Of a stretch of DNA of 64,000 nt, positions 10,679-48,027 are shown piece after piece; position 1 is the first letter of the stretch; every line of letters begins with the position of its first letter. The notes below the pieces were generated by a model that was not told where the DNA came from, ran no database searches, and saw only the letters and a list, made by a program, of their open reading frames with translations. This DNA is from Bacteroidales bacterium. GTDB lineage: Bacteria; Bacteroidota; Bacteroidia; Bacteroidales; ML635J-15. Location: positions 137,766 to 201,765 of the forward strand of contig JAGCDJ010000006.1 of NCBI GenBank assembly GCA_017651185.1. The letters run 5' to 3'. The position numbers were made by a program, and so were the translations under genes.

Positions 10679-10710
10679 ATGGGTAGTACAAATGGATAAT
10701 AAGAAAAAAT

Positions 10711-10869
10711 CCGTCCAAGTTCCCAAACAAAATCCGTCCAAGTTCCCAAGCAAAATTCGTCCAAGTTCCCAAGCAAAATTCGTCCAAGTTCCCAAGCAAA
10801 ATTCGTCCAAGTTCCCAAGTAAAAACAAGCCAAGTTCCCAGGTGAAAATCGTCCAAGTTCCCAAATGGA
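10711..10869 (+). repeat. Tandem array with seven copies of a 23-bp unit ([T/C]CGTCCAAGTTCCCAAGCAAAAT)
   Basis: Copies start at 10711, 10734, 10757, 10780 and 10803 (exact 23-bp period), followed by two variant copies up to 10869. Confidence 0.9.
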
Positions 10870-10935: not shown

Positions 10936-12213
10936 ATGAGTACTTATAGACATCGAATTGCTGACTATATGTTGGCAGAAAGATTGAGAAGAAAAGGTGC
11001 TGTTTTGGTAGAAGGACCAAAGTGGTGCGGCAAGACAACTACCGCTGCACAGCAGGCAAAAAGCATCCTCTATATGGCCGACCCAATGTCAAGACAGCAG
11101 AACCTTCAGGCAGCAAAAGTCAATGTGCAGCATCTTCTAAAGGGAGAAACACCTCGTCTAATTGACGAATGGCAGATTGCACCATCGCTATGGGATAGTG
11201 TCCGTTTTGAAGTCGATCAAAGGAGTGGATACGGACATTTCATTCTCACTGGCAGTAGTGTTCCGCCTTCAATGGATGATATATTTCACTCGGGAACGGG
11301 CCGTTTCTCCAAATTGAAAATGCGAACGATGTCGCTGTACGAGTCGCAGGATTCATCCGGCGAGGTCAGTTTTAGGGACTTGTTCGAAAATCCACAGTCA
11401 TCGCTTAATGGCAGTAGCAATATAGATATAAACAGATTGGCTTTTCTTATTTGCCGTGGTGGTTGGCCGGGAGCGTTGGATTTGAAGGAAAAAGATGCTC
11501 TTGCTCAGGCTTACGATTATTATGATTTGGTTTGCGACAGCGACATATCCCGTGTTGACAATGTGGAGCGCAACCCGCAGCGAGTCAGATTGTTAATGCG
11601 TTCGTATGCTCGTCATCAGGGGACAATGGCAACGATTGGTACGATACTCGCCGATATGAAAGCAAATGAAGCCAGTTCGTTGTCGGACAATACGGTGTAC
11701 GATTACATAAATGCACTTAAAAAGATTTTTGTCATTGAAGATATGCCGGCATGGAATCCTAACTTGCGTAGCAAGACCGCATTGCGCACAAGCGACAATC
11801 GTTACTTTATAGATTCTGCTATAGCGACGTCTGCTTTGGGCGCAAGTCCCGATGACCTTATTAACGATTTGAATACAATGGGCTTGCTTTTCGAGACGCT
11901 TGCTGTGCGCGACCTTCGTGTTTATGCCGATGCTCTTGACGGGCAGGTGTATCACTATCGCGACAAGAAGGGGCTTGAATGTGATGCCATCTTGCATCTT
12001 AGAAATGGATCGTATGGTCTTATTGAAATCAAGTTGGGTGGCGATGACCTTATAGAGGAGGGGGCAAATTCGCTAAAAAAACTTGCGAACGAAATAGATA
12101 CTACTCGTATGAAATCTCCTTCGTTTATGATGGTGCTTACTGGTGTCGGTGATTTTCCATACAGGAGGGACGATGGCGTTATTGTTGTGCCTATTGGCTG
12201 TTTAAGAGATTAA
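10936..12213 (+). CDS. AAA_14/DUF4143-type ATP-binding protein (COG1373-like) with a C-terminal PD-(D/E)xK-like motif
   Basis: Walker A 'VEGPKWCGKTTTA' and Walker B-like 'RLIDEWQ'. The C-terminal 'GLECDAILHLRNGSYGLIEIKLGG' is a D...ExK nuclease-fold signature. Confidence 0.85.
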   Translation: MSTYRHRIADYMLAERLRRKGAVLVEGPKWCGKTTTAAQQAKSILYMADPMSRQQNLQAAKVNVQHLLKGETPRLIDEWQIAPSLWDSVRFEVDQRSGYGHFILTGSSVPPSMDDIFHSGTGRFSKLKMRTMSLYESQDSSGEVSFRDLFENPQSSLNGSSNIDINRLAFLICRGGWPGALDLKEKDALAQAYDYYDLVCDSDISRVDNVERNPQRVRLLMRSYARHQGTMATIGTILADMKANEASSLSDNTVYDYINALKKIFVIEDMPAWNPNLRSKTALRTSDNRYFIDSAIATSALGASPDDLINDLNTMGLLFETLAVRDLRVYADALDGQVYHYRDKKGLECDAILHLRNGSYGLIEIKLGGDDLIEEGANSLKKLANEIDTTRMKSPSFMMVLTGVGDFPYRRDDGVIVVPIGCLRD

Positions 12214-12215
12214 CG

Positions 12216-12264
12216 AAAAACAAGCCAAGTTCCCAAGTGAAAATCGTCCAAGTTCCCAAATGAA
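12216..12264 (+). repeat. Downstream copy of the 49-bp block that ends the upstream tandem array
   Basis: 12216-12264 matches 10821-10869 at 47 of 49 positions in the same orientation. It starts 3 nt after the ATPase stop codon. Confidence 0.9.
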
Positions 12265-43049: not shown

Positions 43050-43724
43050 TTGACTATGCTCAACAACATTATTATTTACGAGGCAGTTGCAAAGTTGAAT
43101 AGCAAATGGATTGACGAAAATTCCGTTTCGCACGATTTCGCCAATGGCAAGGGAACGATAACGCTAAAAGATGGCGTGACGAAAATTGGCGATAGAGCAT
43201 TCTTTAATTGCAACAATCTTACGAAAGTCGTAATTCCTAATTCTATTGAAGCAATAGGCGGATGGGCATTTTACGAATGCAATAGTTTGGCTTCTGTAAC
43301 CATTCCCGATTCTATCACGTTCATTAGCGAATGTGCTTTCGGCGGATGTAGTAGTTTGACTTCCATAGTTATACCTGCTTCAGTGACAGAAATTTGCGCT
43401 GTTACATTTAGCGGTTGTAGGAGTCTGAAGTCAGTCGTAATACCAAATTCGATGACGAAAATTGGAAACGGCGCCTTTTCGCATTGTTCGGCTTTGGAAT
43501 CGGTCGTAATCCCGGAGTCGGTTACTACAATTGGTGCTTGTGCCTTTGCCGCGTGTAAAGTGTTGGCTTCGATAGTCATTCCTGATGCCGTTGTAGAAAT
43601 CGGAAGTTCCGCCTTTTACGGTTGCAAAAGTTTTTCTGCCGATACGATGGCGAAGATATACAAAGTAAATAATATGGCTTTCAGCGAGAATGAGGTAATT
43701 AAAACTTTTAGTCACTTATTTTAA
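43050..43724 (+). CDS. Short BspA-type LRR protein (224 aa) without a signal peptide or T9SS tail
   Basis: Six or seven units of 'LxSVVIPxSVTxIGxxAFxxCxxL'. The N-terminus is not hydrophobic. The ATG at 43056 is an alternative start. Confidence 0.8.
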   Translation: MTMLNNIIIYEAVAKLNSKWIDENSVSHDFANGKGTITLKDGVTKIGDRAFFNCNNLTKVVIPNSIEAIGGWAFYECNSLASVTIPDSITFISECAFGGCSSLTSIVIPASVTEICAVTFSGCRSLKSVVIPNSMTKIGNGAFSHCSALESVVIPESVTTIGACAFAACKVLASIVIPDAVVEIGSSAFYGCKSFSADTMAKIYKVNNMAFSENEVIKTFSHLF

Positions 43725-44101: not shown

Positions 44102-44746
44102 ATGAGTATGAATTCAAGAATTGAGAAAATGGGTAATTATACTAGTAGCATAATGGCGGAGAACCTAAGAAATGATTTAAAGTCTTTTATTAGCGGTTTG
44201 GGTTATAATGGTGATGACATTGTCTCCAAAATGAAAACAAAAGATTTAATTCCTTTGAAAAAAATCGTAAGTAGCGTGAATAATATTTTAGCAGTTAAAG
44301 CGGCTGAAGTTTTTGTAGAAAAATTGGAAGAATATGGATTTATTAAAGAAGCGCAAAAAAAAGGAATGCTGACAAAATTATCAAATACGAATCCAAATGC
44401 AAAAGGTTATGATGTGCAGTATGATGGAAAAAATGAAGAGAAAAAAATCTTAGCAGAAGTAAAATGTAATATTCCTAAAGATAAGAAGCATTTTGGTGAG
44501 AATAAAGATTCCCATATAAAAAAAGACATTAAACACCTCTTTGATGGGAAAAATGGAATCAATACAAATGATTATTACAAATTTTTTGTTGTTATGAAAT
44601 GTGATGACATAGAAACATGTATGGAGGGTTTGATTGAAAGTTTTTACAGAGAACACGAAGAAAAAAGAGATAAAATCAAATTATATAAAAGAGGTATGGA
44701 CTTGAATGAAAAATATGTATATGTCGTTTTTGTATCAATTGATTAA
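44102..44746 (+). CDS. Hypothetical 214-aa protein with a PD-(D/E)xK-like motif (possible nuclease fold)
   Basis: 'KGYDVQYDGKNEEKKILAEVKCNIP' has a D, a 15-residue gap, then ExK, in a beta-strand context. No other assignment was possible. Confidence 0.45.
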   Translation: MSMNSRIEKMGNYTSSIMAENLRNDLKSFISGLGYNGDDIVSKMKTKDLIPLKKIVSSVNNILAVKAAEVFVEKLEEYGFIKEAQKKGMLTKLSNTNPNAKGYDVQYDGKNEEKKILAEVKCNIPKDKKHFGENKDSHIKKDIKHLFDGKNGINTNDYYKFFVVMKCDDIETCMEGLIESFYREHEEKRDKIKLYKRGMDLNEKYVYVVFVSID

Positions 44747-44776
44747 CAATAGTATTATCCCATAAATATTAAAAAC

Positions 44777-45865
44777 ATGAAAATAGTAAACATTGACGCA
44801 AAAGAAGAAGATTTAAGGGAAATTAACCTTAAAAATGTCGAAAGTATTATATGCGCTGCAGTTAGTCCGTTCGAACAAGAATTAGGAGGTTTAAAAGGTA
44901 TAAATGACTTGAATTTACTCCAAACTATCCCAATTAAATTAAGGGATAATGGTGATGACGAAAATGAAGAAGGCGTAATAGACCTGTTAGGGGCTTACTA
45001 CCCACGAACAACAAAAAGAGACCCGCGTATTGAATTATTTGTAAGTTCAATAAAAGATTCAGTTAACGGTAATGTCCAACAATTCAAATGGTTATTTACT
45101 AAAGTGTTAATACACGAATTCTCCCACGCCCTATTTGATATTAACAATTATAGAAAGACTGATTTTATATATGCTAGGATAAACTATTGTTCTGAATATG
45201 GCAGATGGAGAGAAGAATCAATGGCGAATGCACTTGCACTTCGAGTTATAAAGGAATATGGCGATACAGATTTTTATGAATATGCCAAATCTTTTATGTT
45301 GTCACAACCACCAGAATATGCATTAGGCGTATTGATGGAAGATTTTAGTTCTCTGGATTATAAACGTTATATTGACAGTAAAGAACGTGGCGTTAATAAT
45401 GACCTTAAACAAATATGGCTAAAGTATGTTAAAAATGGCAATCCAACACCTAATTTGCTAAAAAAGTGGAATGTAGTCTTCTGGGGTGAATATGCATATT
45501 ATTTTAAAGAGAACTATTATTCTAGCGTAAGAAATTTGGTTCCTAGTACGGGGAAATTGGTTGTTGACATTGTAATGGACAAACTTAATAAATTTGAGAA
45601 TGAGCATGGTCGGAAAATGACAGAGGCTGAATTTACAGATGCTTTTCCCAATAATATTGAAATTGAAACTGTTACCAAATGGGTAAATGTGCCTCATATA
45701 CAATGCGCATACGAATTTGATTCGAGACCAATATATGAATATAAGATTGAATTAAAAGACGGTATATGTTATTTAGCTAGTTTAAAATGGAACAACGATA
45801 ACCTTCATAAATTTTTAGGTAAAAATAGATATGCTTATGGTTTCACGGAGTATCAAAATTACTAA
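44777..45865 (+). CDS. HExxH zinc-metallopeptidase-like protein (ImmA/IrrE-like signature) with an extra C-terminal domain
   Basis: 'VLIHEFSHALFD' is followed about 30 residues later by 'WREESMANALALRV', the HExxH...ExxAN pattern of ImmA/IrrE-type proteases. It starts 30 nt after the upstream gene. Confidence 0.55.
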   Translation: MKIVNIDAKEEDLREINLKNVESIICAAVSPFEQELGGLKGINDLNLLQTIPIKLRDNGDDENEEGVIDLLGAYYPRTTKRDPRIELFVSSIKDSVNGNVQQFKWLFTKVLIHEFSHALFDINNYRKTDFIYARINYCSEYGRWREESMANALALRVIKEYGDTDFYEYAKSFMLSQPPEYALGVLMEDFSSLDYKRYIDSKERGVNNDLKQIWLKYVKNGNPTPNLLKKWNVVFWGEYAYYFKENYYSSVRNLVPSTGKLVVDIVMDKLNKFENEHGRKMTEAEFTDAFPNNIEIETVTKWVNVPHIQCAYEFDSRPIYEYKIELKDGICYLASLKWNNDNLHKFLGKNRYAYGFTEYQNY

Positions 45866-46100
45866 TTCAAAATAATAATGCGAAAGAGTACGAACATATT
45901 ATTATTTCCATACAATATTGCAAATTGATAGTGACAGTGTTGCTTGGTGGCATTGTAGGGGTTGGTTTTAAATCTGTCCCTACATGCACCCATCTGCATT
46001 CAAATATGGCCTTGCCTAAATGTTCGTGCATTAAAAAAATCAGTGTGAAAATCAAGATTCTTGTTATTTTTGCACACAAGCAACACAATAATGCAGTAAT

Positions 46101-46394
46101 ATGGCAATATTTCTTTGGATATTTCAGTTCATCAGCCCAATAATGGTCATTCTTGGGGCTTTGTACCTTATAGGAGATCCGTCTATATTGTCACTCGTAC
46201 TAGGAGGCGTGGCGGCAGTATTTGGACTTGTTGTCGGTATTGTAGGTTGGGCAGATACGGTGCCGCCCCGCTGGTTTTGGATTAAGAGCCGTATGGATTT
46301 GGCTGGCAGCCGTGTTGTTACAGCCCTTGGCTATGCCGTTCAGTTCTTTTTCATTCCTCCCTGCATAATAGGACTGATTGAATACTTTGGTTGA
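46101..46394 (+). CDS. 97-aa integral membrane protein; paralogue of 4893..5186
   Basis: 78 of 97 residues are identical to ORF 4893..5186. Long identical nucleotide runs include CGCTGGTTTTGGATTAAGAGC and CAGTTCTTTTTCATTCCTCCCTGCATAATAGG. Confidence 0.7.
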   Translation: MAIFLWIFQFISPIMVILGALYLIGDPSILSLVLGGVAAVFGLVVGIVGWADTVPPRWFWIKSRMDLAGSRVVTALGYAVQFFFIPPCIIGLIEYFG

Positions 46395-46598
46395 TATGCG
46401 CTATAAACAATCGAATTTCTGCATTTGTAATCCAGAAAAATCATACCTAAAATAGGTAACCTAAAATAGGTTGGATTTTGAAAAAAATTTATATTTGCAC
46501 ATCTCTAATACTTGATTTTATGATTTGCATAAATTCTGCCTAATTTTTATGTAATTCATAAAATGGCATTTTACGATTTGCATAAATTATACACTATT

Positions 46599-46648
46599 TT
46601 GCACTATGATAGTGCAATATTTCAAAATAATTGCACTGCAATAGTGCA
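46599..46648. repeat. Left inverted-repeat block made of two 18-19-bp palindromes (TTGCACTATGATAGTGCAA, TTGCACTGCAATAGTGCA)
   Basis: Matches the reverse complement of 47890-47940 at 44 of 50 positions. It lies 27 nt beyond the ATPase stop codon. Confidence 0.85.
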
Positions 46649-46674
46649 TTTGCAATTAACTGAGGTTTGGGTTG

Positions 46675-47847
46675 TCAATACATCAATCCGAAAGCCCACA
46701 GGGGAATAATGTTTCCAGAGCCGAACTCAATGTTGTCCTTTACAATGTAACCTTCTTCCGCATCCGAAATCTGCTTTTTGCCTTTCTTTTTTCCGCCGAC
46801 TTCAAATGTTTTTCCATCAATTTCAAAGTCACTTATGCGGGAATTTATAATGTCGGTTGTTACTCGCAACTGGTTGTAGAAGAAAGTTTCGCGGATATTG
46901 CCAATTTCTGTTGCTTCACCGCCAAGCAAATAAGCAAGGTTTGTGTTGTCGAGGTATACTTTTTCTACTTTTCCAACACCTCTGATGCCACCGGTAGTGT
47001 CGCGGAGTTGACCTATCATACCTGCTTGTTCCATATATAAGAAATAGTCTGGCAAAACATTCCTGCTTACACCGATAATGGTAGCAATTGTGTCCATTAC
47101 AGGTTTGAATGGCGCACTTTGTGAGATTACCGCCAGCAGTTTTTTCAGTTTTCTGCCAGTAGAAACATTCATATTGGCAAATATTGGAATGTCAACTTCC
47201 ATCGTTTGATTTATTACTTGCCGTAGTTTCAGGTCAAAGTCTCCTTCAATTGCAAACGGATAATATCCGTGCTTTAAATACTCTTGAAACAAAGGAAGGG
47301 GATGGCTTACATCTGGAATATTTGCTTTGTGTTCAAGAATTTCGTTTAACGAATACACTTGTACTCCAATTTGATGGAACATATTCAGATATTCCCTGAA
47401 TGATAAACCTTGCATCATAAAAATAGGTGCACGGCGGCTTAGGTCAGCGTATCCTTTATAAATGTCAAGTACCGATGACCCTGTAAATCCGACCTTTAAA
47501 TCGGGATAAGAGTCGTAAATCTGTTTCAGTTCGCGCGACCAGTTTTCGTATTTGTGAATCTTATCTATAAATATCTGTTCCCCGCCTTCTTTCGAAAACT
47601 CATCAACTAAGTCAACAAGTGTATGGGACGAAAAATATATGTGGTCGGCGGAAGCATAAAATATGTTTCTGTCGTTTCTGTGTTCCTTAATATATTGCAA
47701 AATCATTGTGGATTTTCCCACACCGCGCGGTCCTACAAGTCCAAACATACGTGATTCCCAATTGATTTTGGTGTACATATAACGATGAAAAGCAGTGTCC
47801 GTCTGTTGCAGTTGCCTTTCCATATAAGTTGTAATCGAAATGTCCAT
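46675..47847 (-). CDS. AAA_14/DUF4143-type ATP-binding protein (COG1373-like), second copy of the architecture
   Basis: Walker A 'LVGPRGVGKSTMI', Walker B-like 'IFIDKIH', and a C-terminal 'RISDFEIDGKTFEVGGKKKG' nuclease-fold-like motif. Confidence 0.85.
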   Translation of the reverse strand: MDISITTYMERQLQQTDTAFHRYMYTKINWESRMFGLVGPRGVGKSTMILQYIKEHRNDRNIFYASADHIYFSSHTLVDLVDEFSKEGGEQIFIDKIHKYENWSRELKQIYDSYPDLKVGFTGSSVLDIYKGYADLSRRAPIFMMQGLSFREYLNMFHQIGVQVYSLNEILEHKANIPDVSHPLPLFQEYLKHGYYPFAIEGDFDLKLRQVINQTMEVDIPIFANMNVSTGRKLKKLLAVISQSAPFKPVMDTIATIIGVSRNVLPDYFLYMEQAGMIGQLRDTTGGIRGVGKVEKVYLDNTNLAYLLGGEATEIGNIRETFFYNQLRVTTDIINSRISDFEIDGKTFEVGGKKKGKKQISDAEEGYIVKDNIEFGSGNIIPLWAFGLMY

Positions 47848-47889
47848 AACCTTGTCATTTATAATTCAGTGCTGCAAATATAATTAAAA

Positions 47890-47940
47890 TTGCACTATTG
47901 TAGTGCAAAAATGTTTAAAAATTGCACTATCATAGTGCAA
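47890..47940. repeat. Right inverted-repeat block made of two 19-bp palindromes (TTGCACTATTGTAGTGCAA, TTGCACTATCATAGTGCAA)
   Basis: Lies 43-93 nt upstream of the ATPase start codon. It is the inverted counterpart of 46599-46648. Confidence 0.85.
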
Positions 47941-47977
47941 TTTTGTTTTATGTTGGGTTATGTTGCTGATATACAAT

Positions 47978-48000
47978 AAAAAAAGCGGAATTGTTTCCGC
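47978..48000 (-). terminator. Rho-independent terminator of htpG
   Basis: On the minus strand, GCGGAA-ACAA-TTCCGC is followed by U7 (plus-strand A-run at 47978-47984). Confidence 0.7.
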
Positions 48001-48027
48001 CTTTTTCGGTATAAAGTATTGTGTAGG

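Follow-up and report, generated by a model that had tools for sequence, protein, structure and literature searches.

Private palindromic dyads as a probable autoregulatory operator of a mobile single-gene ATPase module in Bacteroidales

A gene for a 390-amino-acid (aa) AAA+ ATPase of a Bacteroidales bacterium (46675..47847 in the stretch analysed here) is accompanied by four copies of a 19-bp palindrome, one pair in its promoter and one inverted pair just past its stop codon. The stretch, referred to below as the window, comprises 64,000 nt of the forward strand (137,766-201,765) of contig JAGCDJ010000006.1 in assembly GCA_017651185.1. We consider it probable (at roughly 60%) that these palindromes are a private autoregulatory operator of a mobile single-gene ATPase module and that the predicted binder is the encoded protein itself, a reading drawn from sequence comparison. 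Relatives were collected in one scan of representative genomes, which yielded 80 loci (designated by L numbers) whose encoded proteins are 62-81% identical to the window ATPase and which belong to Prevotella/Xylanibacter, Bacteroides, Phocaeicola, Parabacteroides, Alistipes, Butyricimonas, and other genera. Exact motifs were counted over the 504,617 bp from these 80 loci and geometry over 78 of them, and the 130 nt preceding each start codon were compared across relatives.

Palindromic dyads in the promoter and their candidate binder

The palindrome has the form TTGCACTAT-N-ATAGTGCAA, and its four copies are arranged as two pairs, each with an internal distance of 32 bp (Table 1). A search for the pattern TTGCACTATNATAGTGCAA with up to 3 mismatches gave four matches in the 64-kb window (46599, 46631, 47890, 47922), where 0.02 would be expected by chance. 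This agrees with the first-pass annotation of the window, which had described a motif found nowhere else in it and an inverted match between two blocks, each of two palindromes about 32 bp apart. The 50-nt core of this inverted repeat indeed matches at 44/50 positions (88%, E = 5e-11), and the comparison of 46599-46658 with 47881-47940 gives 85% over 60 nt (51/60). The same pairs can also be aligned in direct orientation because each unit is self-complementary, but this alignment is poorer (75% over 53 nt, E = 5e-5). Judged from these alignments, the inverted orientation is real, yet dependent on few positions, namely the centre bases, the 13-nt spacer, and an AATTA extension.

The promoter pair is strongly conserved. 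A dyad TGCA[CT]-N7-[GA]TGCA is located upstream of the gene in 76 of the 78 relatives from other genomes, with two copies in 64 loci and three in nine, and the copies are spaced by 32 or 33 bp in 85/86 cases. The box TAnnTTTG, the Bacteroidetes -7 consensus of Bacteroides promoters, is located 7-9 nt past the proximal dyad in 65/78 relatives. Measured from the proximal 17-bp core, the gap amounts to 7 nt at 58 loci and to 8 nt at six, including the window. The homologue of the distal dyad is found ~85-97 nt before the ATG in relatives. Moreover, the motif is exclusive to this position. There were 147 exact occurrences, 144 of them within 200 bp upstream of the gene and the remaining three just downstream of it in L010 and L057, and none elsewhere in the sequence of the 80 loci. 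Likewise, the density of motifs with one mismatch is 10.4 per kb upstream of the gene vs 0.05 inside it and 0.09-0.12 in the far flanks. A promoter scan with a sigma-70 model, which is uninformative for Bacteroidetes, gave 5 sites vs 6 expected.

The half-site TGCAC/GTGCA is constant across genera while the centre and the adjacent positions vary, and positions beside the half-site are often non-complementary in relatives (e.g. TTGCACAACTTTAGTGCAA). A conserved half-site around a variable centre is what a protein-binding site would show and is at odds with a terminator hairpin. Being placed 7-8 nt before the -7 box, the proximal dyad covers the -33 region of the promoter. Thus, as for an autoregulatory operator, the site is conserved, fixed in position, and overlapping core promoter elements. 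The fallback proposal of the first-pass annotation, operators to which the encoded protein binds, receives good though indirect support from this family-private motif fixed in promoters across many genera. A host global regulator as the binder was rejected given that the motif is absent elsewhere in 0.5 Mb of flanks and that each ATPase family has a different motif. A pdif/Xer-type module was set aside, the dyad being a promoter-locked 9-1-9 arrangement paired at 32-33 bp.

The gene neighbourhood is not shared among relatives: the window neighbours including htpG were found in 0/80 loci, and the biggest group of loci with any flanking protein in common has five members. The module consists of a single gene and is present in Prevotella, Bacteroides, Alistipes, Parabacteroides, and Butyricimonas. 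Since a single-gene module without shared neighbours occurs across so many genera, the ATPase is the only module-encoded candidate for the binder. Further, dyad and protein covary between three clades, with TGCACTA..TAGTGCA accompanying the predicted recognition helix SRNVLPDYF, TGCAC..GTGCAg accompanying SRNYLSDYL, and TGCAT..ATGCA accompanying ISRN(N/D)I.

The protein itself has a clear Pfam AAA_14 domain (PF13173, 89.8 bits at a gathering cut-off of 27), and the C-terminal 218 aa gave no Pfam match at all, to DUF4143 (PF13635) or any other family, even at E <= 10. A comparison by hhalign with the DUF4143-containing family of the other ATPase of the window gave a weak match (probability 55.9%, E = 1.1e-4) that is collinear over 289 columns and places GVSRNVLPDYFLYMEQAGMI against the helix-turn-helix of the DUF4143 region. 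The earlier label of a DUF4143-type ATPase thus needs correcting, in that Pfam recognises AAA_14 only and DUF4143 is represented by the weak collinear profile match. Residues E320, D340, E349, and K355 are invariant among 31 relatives of 62-81% identity, a pattern that would fit a variant PD-(D/E)XK site. In PADLOC, the model PDLC04787 (PDC-S01) matches residues 35-344 at E = 3e-22, and five further PDC-S01 models match at E <= 4e-5. BLASTP of the two window ATPases against each other gave no similarity beyond the Walker A motif, no NCBIfam family matched the window ATPase, and no relative was found in the PDB by sequence and profile (best E-values 0.34-1.2, P-loop segments only). DUF4143/COG1373 is a PD-(D/E)XK family whose function is not known (PMC3424549). 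PDC-S01 is reported to join an ATPase to a PD-(D/E)XK domain and to await experimental validation (PMC12988326). Across 6,530 rumen genomes, no other individual defence-candidate locus was reported to be as frequent (PMC13356809), and PDC-S01 is also reported to rank among the commonest candidates across all prokaryotes (PMC13356809, PMC12988326).

In the proposed mechanism, the two promoter dyads at 47890-47940, three helical turns apart and with the proximal one overlapping the -33 region, would most likely be occupied cooperatively by the AAA+/helix-turn-helix/nuclease-like protein, which would repress its own transcription. Repression is the most likely effect because of this overlap with the -33 region, and it would hold a potentially harmful nuclease at a low level. 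Autorepressed genes with tandem dyads, e.g. toxin-antitoxin and defence-gene autoregulators, have a similar layout of two dyads on one helical face, the proximal one over a core promoter element, with a gene-private site and a product with a predicted helix-turn-helix. They differ in that the presumed regulator here is a large AAA+ ATPase and nuclease-like effector, not a small dedicated repressor, and that its binding is a prediction.

Several points weigh against an autoregulatory operator bound by the ATPase. The assignment of the protein as binder is argued by elimination and by covariation, and the latter is confounded by phylogeny. The AlphaFold2 model (36 close homologues, shallow alignment) was unusable, with a mean predicted local distance difference test score of 38.8, and the helix-turn-helix and nuclease fold therefore depend on a weak profile match (probability 56%). 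Given the rigid 7-nt gap, the proximal dyad might contribute to promoter recognition or activation instead of repression. In addition, the dyads, with A and T runs on their flanks, score as bidirectional terminators, so that part of their conservation could be insulation. Regarding the pair behind the gene, the inner dyad of L099 is perfect beside a diverged spacer, which hints at selection for function and not at a decaying remnant, and the mechanism by which the downstream inverted pair arose is not explained.

The gene and its flanking sites as a mobile module

Pairs of loci in unrelated contexts share 86-92% DNA identity from about -98 to -115, i.e. from the distal dyad, to the stop codon, within ~7 nt, and this identity ends sharply at both the distal dyad and the stop codon. 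The closest relative, protein P0001, is 96% identical and sits in another context (RsgA and DUF4348, then the ATPase, then another AAA_14 gene). This second context, represented by L096 and L097, has a larger unit of 1,491 bp in common with the window, at 92% DNA identity. The unit holds the upstream hairpin terminator, the putative operator pair, the promoter, the gene, the inverted downstream pair, and the GATTTGCATAAATT block, and extends ~65 bp past the upstream pair (47890-47940) and ~84 bp past the downstream pair (46599-46649). Putative operators, promoter, and gene form a self-contained module of ~1.3 kb that has probably been relocated many times among Bacteroidales genomes. The first-pass annotation had proposed repeat-bounded cassettes. 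Discrete cassettes of about 1.3-1.5 kb are supported by the non-synteny, the sharp boundaries, and the same 1,491-bp unit in a second context, but a role of the palindrome pairs as their ends or engine is not supported, as the limits of the unit (46515, 48005) lie outside the pairs and a downstream pair is present in 3/81 lineages only.

When the 300-bp flanks on the two sides of the gene were compared with each other, 10 of 73 loci showed a significant repeat, eight of them direct, compared with 3 of 591 equally spaced control placements in the same loci. The eight direct repeats are 28-123 bp long, and six consist of locus-specific sequence. In L026 the repeat is a duplicated terminator (39/39 identical) and in L020 the 3' end of the upstream gene, while in L010 (56/58 identical) and L057 (112/123 identical) it includes the operator pair itself; L015 and L030 are further loci with repeat-flanked copies. 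From their sequence, these direct repeats look like long, variable-length target duplications; with lengths varying from 28 to 123 bp, they do not correspond to target-site duplications of short fixed length. No empty site was found for any of the loci with flanking direct repeats, no terminal motif is common to the module ends, and look-ups with htpG and the neighbouring 97-aa gene gave no ATPase-lacking allele at the window site. Two Bacteroides loci, L052 and L054, have the ATPase and 869 bp downstream in common. Their upstream homology breaks off at -89, precisely where the operator block begins or ends, and this points to a breakpoint of rearrangement on the left side of the module.

Insertion sequences of the IS1634 type generate long, variable-length direct repeats of target sequence. 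The module resembles them as an inserted unit between long variable direct repeats (28-123 bp) of target sequence. It differs by having neither a DDE transposase nor defined terminal inverted repeats, and such repeats accompany ~11% of its copies.

Downstream sites, orphan blocks, and other ATPase families

The downstream pair is a rare feature. Besides the window, where it is inverted, it was found in L010 and L057 in direct orientation, and ~95% of the relatives are without one. Its spacing of 32-33 bp is the same as in the promoter pair. The outer dyad is kept in L096-L098 and L100. L099 has the inner dyad in the same place, there as a perfect palindrome, though the preceding 15 nt have strongly diverged. 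Between the window and L096, the downstream dyads differ by 1 mismatch per 19 nt, which equals the local average of 8%. This inverted pair is most likely a lineage-specific extra operator copy, as opposed to the boundary of an element that inverts or transposes; by analogy with the two orphan blocks described below, a convergent copy of the module may have left it behind when it was lost. It would probably still be occupied by the protein, and its hairpin with the following U run could serve as the terminator of the gene.

The first-pass annotation had also listed repeats in the left flank, and both are there: GATTTGCATAAATT twice at 46522-46535 and 46575-46588, and ACCTAAAATAGGT twice at 46445-46471. 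They lie within two orphan blocks, i.e. promoter-type site arrays whose genes are absent from the window. In L096, the same block as 46516-46588 is followed by the -7 box TGTATCTTTGCG and an AAA_14 gene of a third AAA_14/DUF4143 family, and relatives of this gene in unrelated contexts (L124, L125, L126) have the same block before their -7 box. The gene is missing beside the block in the window and in L100 too. The latter is the one contig returned by a right-end pattern scan of metagenomes. Its identity to the window, in the same orientation, is 97% and reaches from within the gene as far as 46512. Beyond this point it has, on the opposite strand, a 374-aa ATPase_2 gene preceded by three copies of ACCTAAAATAGG plus TATATTTGCA, with the same -7 box as in the window; the window segment 46445-46499 is 98% identical to L100 2160-2215. 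The ATPase_2 module of L100 is situated between direct copies of a 21-nt hairpin element, TATAAATCCGACACGACAAAA (993-1013, 2275-2295, 2348-2368), that is absent from the window. In a related species (L091), the upstream genes correspond to those of the window (362-aa and 97-aa genes, 90% identity), and this position is occupied by a different ATPase_2 module. In this respect the site acts like a hot spot for ATPase modules. As a stack of three operator blocks, two of them orphan, the 280-bp spacer thus records the turnover of ATPase modules.

The 97-aa open reading frame (ORF) at 46101-46394, hydrophobic and without a Pfam match, is a separate case. An identical protein occurs in at least three unrelated contexts (L086, L090-L094), with DNA homology confined to the ORF and ~40 nt per side (window 46058-46429) and a second partial copy in L086. 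This looks like another small mobile or recombining unit.

In each ATPase family examined, the equivalent place in the promoter is taken by repeats private to that family, a covariation across families that agrees with the ATPase as binder; some members also have a copy after the stop codon. The other ATPase of the window, ATPase-1, had been described as bracketed by private direct repeats, and this is the case: seven tandem 23-bp iterons AAAATTCGTCCAAGTTCCCAAGC at 10706-10866 are located just before the -7 box, and the last two are repeated almost exactly at 12216-12261, directly after the stop. The argument from two independent cases that was built on this thus stands in an altered sense, in that private promoter repeats are found in all families examined and post-stop copies in some members. 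Among 20 IMG/VR loci of the ATPase-1 family, mostly 3-7 tandem iterons with a 22-23-bp period were seen, with a GCCAA core in most lineages and a lineage-specific remainder, whereas IMG/VR held no relative of the window ATPase (46675..47847), of the third AAA_14/DUF4143 family, or of the L100 ATPase_2. Two ATPase_2 genes that are 23% identical use different sites (ACCTAAAATAGGT in one and TTGCGAAATTTTTCGCAA in the other), and the third AAA_14/DUF4143 family has ATGCAAAT-type promoter sites. The ATPase_2 gene of L091 has the palindrome TTGCGAAATTTTTCGCAA in its promoter and a direct 33-bp copy with one mismatch 14 nt past the stop.

Some further observations concern individual members of these families. 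In L113, an ATPase-1 relative whose -10 box is sigma-70-like, three TCGGAAGT-type iterons precede the gene (~1380-1440) and two more are located between stop and terminator, within the first 45 nt after the stop. In L102, four tandem GCGTACTAA units follow ~60-110 nt after the stop of an ATPase-1 relative and are unlike its own upstream iterons; they may be sites of a neighbouring module. A third-family relative in L126 (1501-3630) is interrupted: an ISAZ013-type DDE transposase gene lies between the AAA_14 portion (209 aa) and the DUF4143 portion, and a second transposase gene is found upstream. Most database relatives of this third family are incomplete, with 110-280 aa cut off by the contig boundary, and such multi-copy genes may often break metagenome assemblies. 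Elsewhere in the window, a BspA-type leucine-rich-repeat gene (LRR_5, E = 2e-52) is located at 43050-43724, upstream of the unannotated genes at 44102-45865.

Table 1. Positions of the ATPase genes, putative operator dyads, and associated elements (window positions unless a locus is named)
Feature	Position	Strand	Description
AAA+ ATPase gene, PADLOC candidate PDC-S01 member	46675..47847	-	390 aa; AAA_14 domain, predicted helix-turn-helix at residues ~250-280, C-terminal region with E320, D340, E349, K355
-7 promoter box of the ATPase gene	47875..47882	-	TATATTTG (TAnnTTTG), read from sequence
Proximal dyad, putative operator	47890..47908	.	1 mismatch; ends 8 nt before the -7 box on the gene strand
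Distal dyad, putative operator	47922..47940	.	TTGCACTATCATAGTGCAA; perfect palindrome (0 mismatches), A and T runs on flanks
Inner downstream dyad	46631..46649	.	3 mismatches; 26 nt beyond the stop
Outer downstream dyad	46599..46617	.	Perfect palindrome (0 mismatches)
Unit common to the second context (L096, L097)	46515..48005	-	1,491 bp, 92% DNA identity
htpG terminator	47978..48007	-	G+C-rich hairpin and T run; upstream limit of the 1,491-bp unit
Orphan block of the third AAA_14/DUF4143 family	46516..46588	-	AATTTATGCAAATC twice around the palindrome TTTTATGAATTACATAAAA; -7 box and gene absent from the window
Orphan putative operator and promoter block of ATPase_2 (PF01637)	46445..46499	+	ACCTAAAATAGGT twice, -7 box TATATTTG at 46490-46497; gene absent
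ATPase-1 gene, AAA_14 + DUF4143	10936..12213		Tandem iterons upstream and post-stop copy
Repeats of the L091 ATPase_2	1105-1137, 1186-1203, 2290-2322 (L091)		

Alternative readings and significance

The inverted geometry had led to the idea that the palindromes delimit a segment able to invert, or a terminal-inverted-repeat (TIR) transposable unit mobilised in trans. In favour of it, the arms do form an inverted repeat (51/60), which travels with the gene to the second context, but this explanation is largely refuted and we regard it as highly improbable. All 14 loci of the window lineage, from at least 11 samples and three sub-lineages, are collinear in one orientation (consensus assemblies hide rare variants), and with arms that are 85% identical the repeat is not being homogenised. 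Flipping would leave the wiring of the gene to its operators and promoter unchanged. No recombinase, transposase, or invertase domains were found near the gene, where the four nearest neighbouring ORFs have no Pfam match and mreB, mreC, htpG, and the leucine-rich-repeat protein lie farther out. A TIR-type unit is further contradicted by the 1,491-bp unit extending past both pairs and by the 78 of 81 related loci without a downstream pair, the two other cases being direct. A terminator role, i.e. palindromes that are mainly bidirectional intrinsic terminators or insulators around an inserted gene and not protein sites, is only slightly more credible and still very unlikely. It can invoke an excess of terminator-like sites in the region (8 vs 1.3 expected), with three of the four dyads flagged, including the distal dyad on the + strand. 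On the mRNA strand, the inner downstream dyad forms a hairpin followed by AUUAUUUUG, and for the block in the 3' untranslated region the folding energy is -22.5 kcal/mol (z = -3.2), the first hairpin being followed by a U-rich tail; in some relatives (L042) the distal dyad is extended to a long hairpin with a T run. Rfam gave only sub-threshold eukaryotic microRNA hairpin models for the palindrome region, a chance result for a palindrome. However, terminators keep pairing and not sequence, whereas here the half-site is kept across genera while its neighbours are often unpaired. The 32-33-bp spacing and the 7-nt register to the -7 box are left without explanation, and the direct iterons of ATPase-1 at the same position cannot form hairpins. 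Termination, which the first-pass annotation had raised as an alternative, might therefore be a secondary role of the inner dyad, but not the main one in view of the conserved sequence and fixed register.

Two other explanations accept the dyads as binding sites and differ from the autoregulatory operator in what else these sites would do. The downstream pair might be a functional auxiliary operator that acts by looping of the 1.29-kb segment or by titration of the protein, as in P1 incA, for tighter autoregulation or marking of the locus; we see this as a serious rival, though clearly less likely than not. Well-preserved post-stop copies of the sites recur independently in different families (L010, L057, window ATPase-1, L091, L113), the inner dyad of L099 has stayed perfect next to a diverged spacer, and the pair retains its spacing. 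On the other hand, most relatives lack the pair, its orientation is inverted here and direct elsewhere, its divergence from L096 does not fall below the local average, and the two adjoining blocks of the spacer are demonstrably orphans. In the plasmids P1 (incC-repA-incA) and F, initiator genes are flanked by iterons, and the P1 incA iterons are located downstream of repA. The ATPase genes share with them private site arrays over the promoter plus copies just downstream, most closely in the window ATPase-1 (7 + 2 iterons) and L113. Yet these are chromosomal single-gene modules that encode an AAA+ ATPase with a nuclease-like C-terminus and not a Rep protein, the window gene has dyads with an inverted downstream copy, and the likeness is limited to site geometry around the gene. 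It is also conceivable, but improbable, that the operator blocks are att-like sites, where, with no dedicated recombinase, the bound ATPase-nuclease would cut nearby so that the gene and its -7 box excise or integrate; orphan blocks would then be empty sites, genes with operator copies on either side would be filled ones, and insertions elsewhere would produce long target duplications. The enrichment of flanking repeats over controls and their long, locus-specific direct copies fit this, as does the finding that in L010, the window ATPase-1, and L091 the repeats enclose precisely the gene and its -7 box. Breakpoints at the boundary between operator and -7 box recur in the window inverted repeat, L010, and the orphan block 46516-46588, the ATPase_2 site is filled in L100, between 21-nt direct repeats, and empty in the window, and the nuclease-type residues are invariant. 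Against it, loci with flanking direct repeats yielded no empty site, module ends are variable and without a common terminal motif, most copies lack a flanking repeat, L100 has no downstream operator copy, and the orphan ATPase_2 block of the window retains its -7 box, which makes the breakpoints heterogeneous. A series of simple deletions and duplications could also have produced this pattern. In its broadest form, this idea would make PDC-S01-type and ATPase_2 proteins sequence-specific DNA-binding nucleases whose private arrays double as operators and as landing or excision sites, allowing recombinase-free cassette mobility, which we hold to be equally improbable. If true, the orphan blocks and long direct repeats would be its traces and the stack at 46445-46658 a used landing pad.

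What is new is that PDC-S01-type and ATPase_2 genes have lineage-specific, promoter-locked site arrays, with some post-gene copies, orphan blocks, and often long direct repeats. The window protein matches the PDC-S01 models well, and the literature found on PDC-S01 contains no description of operators in the promoter, of site arrays that differ by lineage, of orphan blocks, or of repeats around the gene. For annotation, short private repeats beside such ATPase genes should be read as regulatory sites or remnants and not as transposon ends. The private arrays suggest that these ATPases recognise specific DNA sequences via their predicted helix-turn-helix, and they offer ready ligands for electrophoretic mobility shift assays, footprinting, and structural work. 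Promoter-locked arrays, their covariation with the protein, the joint movement of both, and the persistence of orphan blocks together make a testable hypothesis for PDC-S01.

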